Program-made: the position numbers and the translations under genes
IMG/VR virus record: IMGVR_UViG_2874951433_000005
Strand: one strand, 5' to 3'
From: a virus
Lineage: Duplodnaviria > Heunggongvirae > Uroviricota > Caudoviricetes
DNA length: 10,905 bases
The notes under the pieces: generated by a model
Databases searched by the model: none
Told to the model about the DNA's origin: nothing
The model's input: the letters and a program-made list of their open reading frames with translations, nothing else
Shown: piece by piece, positions 7,466 to 10,905 of the stretch
How the letters are laid out: every line of letters begins with the position of its first letter
How positions within the stretch are numbered: position 1 is the stretch's first letter

Positions 7466-7542
7466 GCGTTGTTAGCTCAGCCGGACAGAGCAATTGCCTT
7501 CTAAGCAATCGGTCACTGGTTCGAATCCAGTACAGCGCGCCA
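7466..7542 (+). tRNA. tRNA-Arg (anticodon UCU, reads AGA/AGG), argN/argO/argU-like
   Basis: Hand-folded: acceptor GCGTTGT/ACAGCGC, D-arm GCTC...GAGC, anticodon stem ATTGC/GCAAT with loop CTTCTAA, T-arm ACTGGTTCGAATCCAGT, GCCA 3' end. Confidence 0.9.
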
Positions 7543-7652
7543 TATTCATTCTTCCAGATTCCTTCCGGCAGAGCCTTATACTGAAATATACCTGGCTCAG
7601 GATATTGTTGAAAATATTATATATTTGTCAAAAATAAAAGTTCTGTTAAGTA

Positions 7653-8006
7653 TTGATTGAGTATTTGTTATACGGTCTAATGGTTTTTTCAGCATTAAGT
7701 ATTTATCATTCATATGGTGTGGGTAGAGTGAATATTGATGAGGTGTCGGGGTGTTTCATCCTTAGGCAGCGTATTGATATAGTCAATGCAGCACGAGCAA
7801 AGGCCTTCAGCCGTTTGACAGTTTTGTTCTGTACTCCTGATCGTCTTTCGGGAAGAGACGTTATTATTCTGAATAGTGATGCTATACAGAGGGTTTGCGA
7901 TGAGTTCATGGTTGCTAATTCAGAATTATTTGCTCTTGTTCAGGAGTACAACAGAATAGCCAGGACCTGTGGTATGGATGAACTTCGGATTACTCATCTG
8001 GGGTAG
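7653..8006 (+). CDS. Hypothetical protein in the AT-rich cargo region (117 aa from TTG, 108 aa from the first ATG at 7680)
   Basis: Open frame in low-GC DNA with many rare codons (AGG, AGA, ATA, CGA, GGA) and no convincing ribosome-binding site. Unrecognised. Confidence 0.3.
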   Translation: MIEYLLYGLMVFSALSIYHSYGVGRVNIDEVSGCFILRQRIDIVNAARAKAFSRLTVLFCTPDRLSGRDVIILNSDAIQRVCDEFMVANSELFALVQEYNRIARTCGMDELRITHLG

Positions 8007-8398
8007 ATACATATCTGGATTATCACCTGTTACGGTAAAAAGTGATTGCTTACTGTTTTTGTTAATGGCATTGCAGCAGCCGGATAATGTCAGTGCCGGC
8101 TGACGGTGTGCTGGTGGCGGGTGTGGTGGTTGTTGCTTTCCCGTTGCTGAAAAAGAAAACGCCAGACTGTTAGCCGGGTATCAGTTAGCGGGAGAAATTT
8201 TTAAATACTTCACAATTCAGGCGGTTGACTGTTGTCTGGTTTGCGGGGAGTTTGTTAAAAGAAACTGGCATGGTGAATCCCCCTGTGCGGAGGGGCAATC
8301 AGCGAGTAGGTATATGGGATAATCGCGGATTCAGGTGCTGGTACTGAATTCACCGGGATGCACCCGGCACCATGGAATGGCACATAGCGCCACTCTCC

Positions 8399-8425
8399 AG
8401 CCCCTCTCCGGAGGGGCTGTTTATA
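8399..8425 (+). terminator. Perfect 20-bp palindrome AGCCCCTCTCCGGAGGGGCT followed by a T-rich tract; candidate intrinsic terminator
   Basis: 8399-8418 is its own reverse complement, followed by GTTTATATTGATTTTGT. Confidence 0.5.
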
Positions 8426-8453
8426 TTGATTTTGTCAGATGTGAGTAAACTCC

Positions 8454-8789
8454 TTATGGACTTTGTTGTTTTAGTCCATAAGGACATATTTGCAGAGTGC
8501 AACGGTTATTAAAGCATTCATTCAATACGTTATCTGTATTTGTAGGGCATTCCTGGCTGTTTTTGATTAAATTCCAGAATGTTTTATTGAATGGTACTAC
8601 GTTGTAAATGGTTACAGGTAGCACTTTGTTATTGAGCATGATGCCTGTGTGAGTCAGTGTAAATATACTTTCAGGAGGTAAGAAAGCATCCGATTGATAC
8701 CAGATTATTAATTTTATTTTACTCCATATGACTGAAAAAGATATTCCGCATGATGGCTGGATAACTGTATCAATCACAATCCACTTCAT
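8454..8789 (-). CDS. Hypothetical protein in the AT-rich cargo region (111 aa), transcribed against the phage late operon
   Basis: ATG at 8787-8789 on the minus strand, preceded by AAGGAAA. Six Cys, Trp-rich, low GC. Unrecognised. Confidence 0.4.
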
Positions 8790-9048
8790 TTAGTTTCCTT
8801 GTTTATGCCTTGCTGGTGATGTTCTGAAAAGTATAAATGATATTTTTGAATTAAACCATAGAGCAGAATTATTTTTCTGATGTTGTTTATTGTTTATTTA
8901 AATGCAGGGTGGTTTATATCTCGTCTTGTAGTTTATCCATGCATATCTGCTTGATAATCAGGTTTTTATTTAAGGTATGGTTTTGTGTTTTTTCTGTATT
9001 ACATGTCAGGTATTTTAAAGAATTATTTTTCAGATGGTGGAAAGAACC

Positions 9049-9237
9049 ATGGCATTTAAACACTATGATGTTGTCAGGGCGGCGCCGCCGTCAGATCTTG
9101 CGGAAAAGCTGACACATAAACTGAAAGAGGGCTGGCAGCCGTTTGGTAGTCCGGTGGCCATAACCCCTTATACCCTGATGCAGGCGATTGCAGCAGAAGG
9201 TGATGTGGTGGTCAGTGGTGCAACTGAGCCGGAGTGA
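9049..9237 (+). CDS. Small prophage protein (62 aa from the ATG at 9049), of a type found upstream of lysis genes in lambdoid prophages (DUF1737-like, by recollection)
   Basis: MAFKHYDVVRAAPPSDLAEKLTHKLKEGWQPFG... with a GGTGGAAAGA ribosome-binding site. The ORF track starts it 5 codons earlier, at 9034. Confidence 0.55.
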   Translation: MAFKHYDVVRAAPPSDLAEKLTHKLKEGWQPFGSPVAITPYTLMQAIAAEGDVVVSGATEPE

Positions 9238-9398
9238 TACTACGTCATCGTACTGGCCCGGCATTCCAGGCCATAAAAGACAGTCTGGCAGTGGGACTAA
9301 ATGCACTGACGCTGACGGATATTACCAAAAATGCAACGTATGGCGTTGAGATAGAAAGTCTGGTGCTGGAGATAAATGCACCGGCATCATCATAAAAA
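9234..9398 (+). CDS. Small ORF (55 codons, GTG start) overlapping the upstream stop in a GTGA junction
   Basis: GTG at 9234-9236 overlaps the TGA at 9235-9237. Translation: ...[44 protein letters not shown]. There is no ATG and no independent ribosome-binding site. Confidence 0.35.
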
Positions 9399-9479
9399 GT
9401 GAGCCAGTCAAATGGAAGGTATCGTTAAACTCACCGGTAGTGTCAGTGGGTCGTCTGAGACGCTTGCATGAGTTATCAG

Positions 9480-9510
9480 AGCCATCAGTAGTTAACTGGT
9501 GGCTTTTTTA
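9480..9510 (+). terminator. Intrinsic terminator immediately upstream of the holin gene
   Basis: 9-bp stem AGCCATCAG / CTGGTGGCT (one G-U pair) with loop TAGTTAA, followed by TTTTTTATT. Confidence 0.55.
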
Positions 9511-9544
9511 TTGTTGTCAGCTTCCGGATAACGGGAGACGGGGT

Positions 9545-9724
9545 ATGGACCAGATGGAAAAAATCACAACAGGTGTGTCATACACCACGTCAGCGGTGGG
9601 AACGGGCTACTGGTTCCTGCAGTTGCTGGACAGGGTTTCCCCGTCTCAGTGGGCGGCAATAGGCGTGCTGGGAAGTCTGCTGTTTGGGCTGCTGACATAT
9701 CTGACTGAGGTGTACTGGCAATAG
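9545..9724 (+). pseudogene. S21-type pinholin/antiholin gene (dual start M-D-Q-M), 3'-truncated by the IS600-like copy 2 insertion at 9705/9706
   Basis: [53 protein letters not shown] resembles the phage 21 S holin from memory. After ...LTYLT the frame runs into the IS and ends as TEVYWQ-stop, so the charged C-terminal tail is lost. Confidence 0.8.
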
Positions 9725-9748
9725 CGGACACTACCATTTGTTCTTTTT

Positions 9749-10567
9749 TTAAGCAGCTATCTGATGATATTTTTCCCTGAAGGCTGCCGGGGAGATATTC
9801 CCCAGACGAGAGTGACGACGCTGACGATTGTAGAAAATCTCAATGTATTCCCGTATTACTGAGATGGCTTCATCCCGGTTATTAAAACGATAGTGGCTCA
9901 GGCTCTCATTTTTCAGCGTTCCCCAGAAGCTTTCCATCGGAGCGTTGTCGTAACAGTTACCTTTACGCGACATTGATGTTTTCAGACCAGACTGCTCCTG
10001 TATGACCCGGTAATCGTATGCGCAGTACTGTGAACCTCGATCAGAGTGGTGGATTAGCCCGGCAGGTGGGCGCTGGCTCCTGAGCGCCATAAACAGGGCT
10101 TTACCTGTCAGCTCTTTTGTCATGCGCTCTCCCATGGCGTAGCCGACAATTTCGCACGTATAAACATCTTTGATGCCAGCGAGGTACAACCATCCCTCCT
10201 GTGTGGCAACATACGTCAGGTCCGCCACCCAGACCTGATTTGGTGCTGTAGGAGCGAACGTCTGGTTCAGCAGATTTGGCGCAACTGGCAGATTGTGGTT
10301 CGGGTTCGTAGTCGCTCTGAACTTGCGTTTCTGCTTACAGCGTAGCCTCAGCTCCTTACGAAGACGTGCCAGTCGGTCACGACCAACGATGATGCCATTC
10401 TCTGCCAGCTCCGTCTGGAGCCGCCGGGTTCCATATGTTTCGCGAGTGCGGATATGTGCCACCTTAATCTCCGGTTTTAGCCACTCATCACTTTGTTTTC
10501 TGTCTGAGGGTTCATGCTGTACCCAGTTGTAATAACCGCTCCTGGATACACCAAATACCTGACACAT
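9749..10567 (-). CDS. IS600-like transposase OrfB (272 aa from an internal ATG; normally made as an OrfAB fusion)
   Basis: DDE-type integrase core. Differs from copy 1 at one residue (W versus R in ...SDEWLKPEIK). Confidence 0.9.
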   Translation of the reverse strand: MCQVFGVSRSGYYNWVQHEPSDRKQSDEWLKPEIKVAHIRTRETYGTRRLQTELAENGIIVGRDRLARLRKELRLRCKQKRKFRATTNPNHNLPVAPNLLNQTFAPTAPNQVWVADLTYVATQEGWLYLAGIKDVYTCEIVGYAMGERMTKELTGKALFMALRSQRPPAGLIHHSDRGSQYCAYDYRVIQEQSGLKTSMSRKGNCYDNAPMESFWGTLKNESLSHYRFNNRDEAISVIREYIEIFYNRQRRHSRLGNISPAAFREKYHQIAA

Positions 10568-10602
10568 CGCTTCAATGGGAAATTGTTGTCGCCATTGTTC
10601 GA

Positions 10603-10905
10603 TTAACGCGTATTTTTCAGCGACTCCTGTGCAAAATACGCTGTTGCTTTTTTTAATATATCTCGCTCAAGGCGAGCTTCATTTAACGCCTTACGCAGTT
10701 GCAGAATTTCAGATTCCAGTTCAGCCACCGTGCGGGAACCAGGAGTACCGAGCCCTTTTCTGGCGGCGGTAACCCATTGTCCTAAAGTGCCTTCAGGAAG
10801 GAATAATCGGGAAGCGTCTTCACTGATCGAAAGTTGATTTTCAAGAACCGTTCTGACAGCTTCGGCTTTGAACTCTTTAGAGTAACGTCGGGTTTTTCTG
10901 CTCAT
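10603..10905 (-). CDS. IS600-like transposase OrfA (100 aa) with an intact frameshift window
   Basis: Ends ...DILKKATAYFAQESLKNTR. The minus-strand A-AAA-AAG motif lies at about 10647-10655. Three substitutions relative to copy 1 (Q6R, G30D, S35F). Confidence 0.9.
   Translation of the reverse strand: MSRKTRRYSKEFKAEAVRTVLENQLSISEDASRLFLPEGTLGQWVTAARKGLGTPGSRTVAELESEILQLRKALNEARLERDILKKATAYFAQESLKNTR

Follow-up and report, generated by a model that had tools for sequence, protein, structure and literature searches.

A probable pseudogene fragment of an S21-family holin gene adjoining IS600 in a lambdoid prophage remnant at the Qin locus

Gene content of the prophage remnant

The genes and other features of the window, by which we mean the whole stretch of 10,905 nucleotides analysed (IMG/VR record IMGVR_UViG_2874951433_000005), are listed in Table 1. 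Its central part is a 6.7-kb prophage remnant (3038-9705) situated between two inverted IS600 copies and carrying ydfV, relBE, hokD, rem, ydfU, rusA, the late antiterminator gene Q, tRNA genes, an iraM-like gene, a DUF1737 gene, and the 5' part of a holin gene. The segment 3036-5940 has 93% DNA identity, over 2.9 kb, to the ydfV-relB-relE-hokD-rem-ydfU region of the Qin prophage of Escherichia coli K-12. As is typical of Qin, the remnant is located beside ydfJ and has the gene order ydfV-relBE-hokD-rem-ydfU-Q-holin. The ydfJ flank and the Qin-like early genes thus identify the element as a lambdoid remnant at the Qin position. The segment from Q to the holin gene, however, is of the CFT073 type (98-99% identity), not of the K-12 type, and positions 9400-9705 are 100% identical at the DNA level to the prophage of E. 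coli CFT073 and to many other strains.

Table 1. Genes, signals, and insertion sequences in the window
Feature	Position	Strand	Remarks
IS629-like orfA	1-327		flank particular to the arrangement in this strain
Transposase-like ORF, 224 aa	401-1075		same flank
ORF of 186 aa	1226-1786	+	no match in Pfam or PHROG; its 3' end reaches into IS600 copy 1 at the left end of the element
IS600 copy 1	1784..3037	+	inverted relative to copy 2; 10-bp internal deletion; borders the far side of the 6.7-kb remnant
relB-relE and hokD	3321-4074		intact ORFs
Late antiterminator gene Q	6324..7145	+	amber TAC>TAG at 6789-6791; both halves match PF03589
tRNA gene	7289-7364	+	anticodon CAT; downstream of Q
tRNA gene	7466-7542	+	anticodon TCT; downstream of Q
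STnc100 small RNA	8239-8428	+	lies in the Q-holin interval; Rfam, 121 bits (gathering score 47)
Terminator-like hairpin	8398-8419		within the 3' end of STnc100
Anti-adapter IraM, 111-aa ORF	8454-8789	-	NF007393, 162 bits; Pfam PmrD
DUF1737 gene (67 aa) and 53-aa ORF	9034..9395	+	precede the holin gene; PF08410, E=4e-17; PHROG; order as in CFT073
Intrinsic-terminator-like hairpin and T-run	9478..9512	+	consensus scan; 33 nt upstream of the holin ATG
Shine-Dalgarno-like GGGAG	9533..9537	+	7 nt 5' of the first ATG; read from the sequence
Truncated S21-family class II holin ORF	9545-9724	+	ATG at 9545, TAG at 9722-9724; 59 aa
Native holin part	9545..9705	+	codons 1-53 and bases 1-2 of codon 54
IS600-derived end of the ORF	9706..9724	+	T completing Thr54, EVYWQ, TAG; all in the right inverted repeat
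IS600 copy 2	9706..10905	-	right inverted repeat at 9706; orfB 9749-10567; orfA 10603-10905; extends 64 nt beyond the window end

The relB-relE and hokD reading frames are preserved in the remnant, though the lysis and structural genes are gone. The iraM-like gene lies in the late region, on the opposite strand, and is also found in CFT073. At the position of the two tRNA genes CFT073 has three (Ile, Arg, and Arg) and an IS200C element; the tRNA with the CAT anticodon is called Met by ARAGORN, and its CFT073 counterpart is tRNA-Ile in RefSeq. On the outer side of IS600 copy 1, the stop codon TGA of the 186-aa ORF is formed by the first three bases of the element, making it, after the holin gene, a second ORF ended by an IS600 end.

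The remnant occurs in both orientations relative to the ydfJ-ydfI side and the IS1-fimH-like-ydeP side. One group comprises loci L004, L007, L008, L010, L012, L014, and L016, and the other L003, L005, L006, L009, L011, and L015; the window is identical to positions 3678-14582 of L014, from genome CP026799.1. Both orientations are found within and outside the sub-lineage with the Q amber mutation, which suggests that the remnant has been inverted repeatedly by recombination within IS600.

The exact 59-aa protein is present in the databases as 'Lysis protein S [Shigella flexneri]' (Q7UCH5, Q7UCH5_SHIFL), on 839 contigs (1,465 index blocks), and as 'MULTISPECIES: class II holin family protein [Shigella]', the assignment to Shigella being taken from these protein names. 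None of the 5,426 complete RefSeq genomes of E. coli spans the junction (0 records cover at least 80% of the query). The junction is carried by CP178302.1 ('E. coli ECMA0423'), which is 99.66% identical to the window and has an IS1 within IS600 copy 2; otherwise it was found only in proteins named as Shigella. With 4.44 Mb, the chromosome of CP178302.1 is small, and it is rich in IS elements, which suggests that this deposited E. coli may represent a lineage of the Shigella type. Our literature search found no title or abstract dealing with an IS600 and holin locus of a cryptic prophage in Shigella flexneri.

The holin reading frame, its junction with IS600, and the missing lysis genes

The product of the truncated reading frame matches the Pfam family PF04971 'Bacteriophage P21 holin S' (E=1.2e-23; 83.3 bits, the curated cut-off being 26 bits), covering profile positions 1-54 of 64, and also PHROG holin families (E=1e-25 and 8e-23). 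NCBIfam has no matching model for this holin, whether truncated or intact. S21-type class II holins have a weakly hydrophobic, SAR-like first transmembrane domain (TMD1), rich in G, A, S, and T, and a strongly hydrophobic second domain (TMD2), and pinholins of this type form small heptameric channels that depolarise the membrane. On inspection of the sequence, both domains appear to be kept in the truncated protein, with a hydropathy peak over the second. Met4, encoded at 9554, is in frame with Met1. The gene had been predicted to begin at 9480, but this position falls in a terminator hairpin upstream of the reading frame.

The junction between the holin gene and IS600 is at 9705|9706, ambiguous by one base because of a T. 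The right inverted repeat (IRR) of the element, TGAGGTGTACTGGCAATAGCGGACAC, begins at 9706, where the alignment to the CFT073 prophage ends: the DNA of CFT073 reads CTGACT AAC CTG TAT TTC AAA, and that of the window CTGAC-TGAGGTGTACTGGCAATAG (CTGAC TGAGGTG...). The reading frame consists of 54 native residues, followed by five foreign codons and a stop from the IRR; IS600 abuts codon 54, and translation would run into the repeat for EVYWQ and then stop. A cytoplasmic tail of 17 residues with a net charge of +3 is thereby lost and replaced by a pentapeptide with a net charge of -1. The lysine anchoring TMD2 (K56 of S21-68) is among the residues lost, and the basic tail that characterizes the family is absent. 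The original prediction of an S21-type holin cut by IS600, with removal of its charged C-terminal tail, is thus borne out by the PF04971 match and by the identity to CFT073, which stops at the IRR.

The same junction bears on the reading that the gene is a naturally short holin allele ending at this site, as might be taken from the ORF itself and from its database name, 'Lysis protein S', which carries no partial flag. The final 19 nt of the ORF are IS600 inverted repeat, and the DNA matches the 71-aa allele fully up to the junction base. A check for related holins that naturally end here, proposed together with the original prediction, found none: among the best 120 homologue clusters no member ends near the junction position, and all 120 keep the ..YFK anchor lysine. 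The junction sequence rules out a naturally short allele, and we assign practically no probability to it.

Many homologue clusters (P0007, P0011, P0014, P0019-P0023, P0025, P0029, P0082, and P0093) contain in-frame indels of 3-4 residues in TMD2, for instance TYLTYLT, LTNLTNL, or a missing TYL or FGL. This TMD2 stretch also contains the IS600 junction, and at 9690-9705 the window DNA has two direct copies of CTGAC separated by ATAT (CTGAC ATAT CTGAC). The TMD2 indels may have come from slippage at repeats of this kind.

The full IS600 copy 2 is 1264 bp long and occupies positions 13383-14646 of L014 (CP026799.1). Its ends are IRL TGAGGTAGCC... and IRR TGAGGTGTAC..., with terminal repeats starting TGAGGT as in IS600; the element matches the NCBIfam IS3 transposase model NF033516 (E=5e-100), its orfA and orfB encode 100 aa and 272 aa, respectively, and matching elements of E. 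coli are annotated in RefSeq as 'IS3-like element IS600 family transposase' (96-98% identity). The two copies in the window form an inverted repeat with 98-99% identity.

Because copy 2 runs on past the end of the window, the lack of lysis genes in the window is uninformative by itself. Seen from the window alone, which ends within the IS, a simple insertion of IS600 would fit, with the rest of the holin gene and the endolysin and spanin genes just beyond the element; or, given the IS600-IS600 inversions that occur at this locus, they could have been moved elsewhere intact. The sequence beyond the element, where the original prediction had proposed to look, is available in CP026799.1. There the last base of IS600 is L014 14646, and the base adjoining it aligns to ydfJ of E. 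coli K-12, 265 nt into the gene. Beyond ydfJ come ydfI, ydfZ, rspR, ydfG, and dcp, with 98.5% identity to K-12, and no endolysin or spanin gene. The statement that such genes are missing, literally true of the window, therefore also holds past IS600, and the ydfJ sequence rules out lysis genes just beyond the element. In the other orientation of the remnant the IS is followed by IS1, the FimH-like gene, and ydeP. No lysozyme or spanin family was found among the called genes within 10 kb on each side in 13 complete-genome loci with the junction. The 3' end of the holin gene is missing from all 19 Shigella-type loci compared, CFT073 being the only compared locus that has it, and the reciprocal junction, joining the left inverted repeat (IRL) of IS600 to this 3' end, was not found in one pattern search of metagenome contigs, which is a weak negative.

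A simple insertion of IS600 leaves a 3-bp target-site duplication. Here the flanks are TCC/GGG at the IRL and CAG/GAC at the IRR, with no 3-bp duplication in any pairing. A candidate common flank, 9699-9705 against 3038-3044, matches at 4 of 7 positions and was rejected as an artefact of lenient repeat extension. Since the target duplication is missing and copy 2 has its left end within ydfJ, simple insertion is unlikely, and together with its relocation variant we regard it as highly improbable. The missing duplication points to later recombination or deletion and does not cast doubt on the identity of IS600. We infer that the rest of the cassette was removed through IS600, either by an insertion with a subsequent deletion next to it or by two IS600 copies recombining; the far end of the element is joined to the interior of ydfJ. 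Of the proposal that an IS600 insertion caused the break, the contact of IS600 with codon 54 stands, but a plain insertion does not, given the flanks and the ydfJ sequence on the far side. What is gone includes the ydfR-like gene, the N-terminally hydrophobic lysozyme, the Rz-type gene, and all structural genes. Expansion of insertion sequences, pseudogenisation, and recombination between IS copies are well-known parts of genome decay in Shigella.

Expression and possible activity of the fragment

The terminator-like hairpin preceding the holin gene has a stem at 9478-9506 with 12 pairs and a 5-nt loop, followed by TTTTTTATTG, and a fold of -18.2 kcal/mol (z=-3.87 versus shuffled sequences). 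A strong terminator upstream of the holin gene, as originally predicted, is thus real by both fold and scan, though it is a native feature of the late operon and not a sign of decay, because it is identical in the intact prophage of CFT073. Terminator-like hairpins occur at 7226, 8398, and 9478, and there is no promoter-like site on the plus strand between 8100 and 9545. In lambdoid late operons, the Q-modified polymerase reads through terminators to reach the lysis genes, and the arrangement observed here seems to fit this design. Only Q-modified polymerase would then be expected to transcribe the fragment, and the Q gene of this strain has the amber codon. Given the absence of an own promoter, the several terminator-like hairpins, and the amber codon in Q, the holin fragment is, to judge by these sequence features, probably transcriptionally silent.

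The amber codon in Q was called after aligning the gene to the uninterrupted alleles of L004 and CFT073; a frameshift was also considered for this gene and rejected in favour of the nonsense substitution. The amber allele leaves a Q fragment of 155 aa, the same in CP026799.1, and ydfU (DUF968) has a +1 C frameshift at 5565. Q (273 aa) and ydfU (349 aa) are both intact in ten further loci that share the holin junction, so that both mutations are younger than the holin truncation. Judging from these alleles, the Q mutation is independent of the truncation. The broken Q-like gene of the original prediction is indeed interrupted in this strain, but by a single TAC>TAG substitution that is confined to a sub-lineage and arose after the holin gene had been cut.

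The M-D-Q-M start had been interpreted as the dual start of an antiholin/holin pair. The spacing of Met1 and Met4 is that of S21. Both S107 and S21-71, however, are antiholins owing to an additional positively charged N-terminal residue (PMC9636201), and the extension of the present holin is Asp-Gln, without Lys or Arg. Among the best 120 homologue cluster representatives, 91 have an MxxM start; about half of these (46 of the 91) have a basic residue in the extension (MKSM, MYRM, MLRM, and similar), and the other 45 have none (MYQM, MDQM, MNQM, MFQM), among them the entire MYQM/MDQM/MNQM clade to which the present holin belongs. The FuN-screen preprint states that in S21-68 D2 partly offsets the inhibitory K3 (10.1101/2021.04.20.440580). 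The antiholin reading is thus unsupported by the sequence because of the aspartate and the lack of Lys or Arg, and, by analogy, the Asp-Gln extension would not be expected to slow the release of TMD1.

Could the truncated protein still be an active, membrane-damaging pinholin, perhaps mis-timed, and owe its retention to a role as a toxin or in envelope stress? Its intact parts are TMD1, the loop, and almost the whole of TMD2 with the GxxxSxxxG-type stretch, and the ORF is unchanged in the 839 contigs. When S21-68 was shortened from the C-terminus by single residues, the tail proved unnecessary for pore formation down to K56, and the tail-less variant S21-56 is functional (10.1101/2021.04.20.440580). 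Lysis modules of other cryptic prophages are reported to affect vesicle production in E. coli K-12 (PMC7918800). The form of the present protein starting at Met4 also has 56 residues, but positions 52-56 are EVYWQ instead of NLYFK, so that Gln stands in place of the anchor lysine and the C-terminus has acquired a net negative charge. K56 is critical as the TMD2 anchor in S21-68, and only Arg is described as replacing it, the text giving no result for Gln at position 56 (10.1101/2021.04.20.440580). The conservation of this lysine in all of the best 120 homologue clusters, the terminator directly upstream, the lack of an own promoter, and the Q amber mutation also argue against activity.

The constancy of the ORF across many contigs is explained by the little divergence of these genomes: two of them differ at 14 positions in the 6.7-kb remnant, and these differences include new inactivating mutations in neighbouring genes. 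By analogy with another allele, identical at 40 of 54 residues, whose mutagenesis is the basis for deducing the loss of function, the fragment, if made, would most likely be a poor or inactive pinholin, although residual membrane activity is possible. We therefore consider an active, retained pinholin unlikely. An even less probable version is that the 59/56-aa tail-less pinholin has some depolarising activity and that Shigella flexneri keeps it as a small membrane toxin dependent on Q, on a 6.7-kb cassette with relBE and hokD that flips recurrently between two inverted IS600 copies.

The reading that we hold with confidence is that the ORF is a pseudogene fragment, formed by the 5' 161 nt of an S21-family holin gene, in a lambdoid remnant that occupies the Qin locus on a Shigella chromosome. 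The originally proposed lysis defect of the prophage is upheld: the S21-family holin has no tail and the lysis cassette is absent, and the prophage presumably cannot lyse the cell. This is ordinary IS-driven pseudogenisation of an ORF that has already been catalogued. Its significance is small: it is a further example of a cryptic Shigella prophage decaying through insertion sequences. Nevertheless, the name 'Lysis protein S' hides an IS-fused pseudogene and could mislead predictors of prophages and lysis genes. The fragment is also a natural counterpart of the engineered S21-56 with the anchor lysine replaced, and could offer an inexpensive way of testing the K56-anchor idea. Finally, when a window ends in a repeat, the absence of a gene from it is not absence from the genome; in this case the check confirmed the absence.

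Comparison with known systems

IS600 copy 2 has nothing unusual for an IS600 element of the IS3 family: the length of about 1.26 kb, the TG...CA-type ends, and orfA/orfB are all as expected. Copy 1, unlike the typical element, has a private 10-bp deletion. At 2095-2110 it lacks 10 bp (ATTAAA[AAAAGCAACA]GCG) present at 10643-10652 in copy 2. The A-run where orfA and orfB overlap is lost with the deletion, and orfA is shortened from 100 aa to 92 aa. This A-run is probably the programmed -1 frameshift site known from the IS3 family, and copy 1 is probably unable to make the fused transposase.

The Qin prophage of K-12 has a holin of the same family (essQ; another member is essD of DLP12) that points towards ydfJ in the same ydfJ-ydfI neighbourhood. 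K-12 retains essQ-ydfR-rrrQ-rzpQ/rzoQ and about 7 kb of late genes (cspI through ydfK), all of which are lost here. In K-12 the interval between ydfJ and essQ contains ydfR, rrrQ, rzpQ/rzoQ, and tail, terminase, and other late-region genes. The ydfJ gene is complete in K-12 and lacks its first 265 nt here. The Q-to-holin DNA of K-12 Qin cannot be aligned to that of the remnant, and so the two are mosaic relatives.

The closest intact counterpart of this segment is found in CFT073, where the 'class II holin family protein' WP_000372595.1 has 71 aa, starts with MDQMEK, and keeps the 17-residue tail. Its upstream genes (iraM-like, DUF1737, 53-aa ORF, tRNAs, Q, and rusA) are common to the window with 98-99% identity. 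Downstream, CFT073 has genes for a YdfR family protein, a hypothetical protein (on the opposite strand), a lysozyme of 177 aa with a hydrophobic, G/A-rich N-terminal segment, and a lysis protein of 155 aa. The lysis-cassette context is thus present in CFT073 and absent from the remnant.

In phage 21, S is followed by a SAR endolysin and a spanin, neither of which comes after the holin here. The S21-71 antiholin extends the S21-68 pinholin by M-K-S, as opposed to M-D-Q in the present protein, where the positive charge is missing, and the C-terminal 17 residues, including Lys56 (S21-68 numbering), are swapped for EVYWQ of IS600. In other respects the 59-aa ORF resembles S21, with which it belongs to one family (E=1e-23). 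It has a G/S/T/A-rich TMD1, a loop ending in ..SPSQW, and a TMD2 of the form IGVLGSLxxGxLTYLT. It also shares 40 of its 54 retained residues with the S21-like cluster representative P0060 and keeps the in-frame Met1/Met4 spacing of S21.
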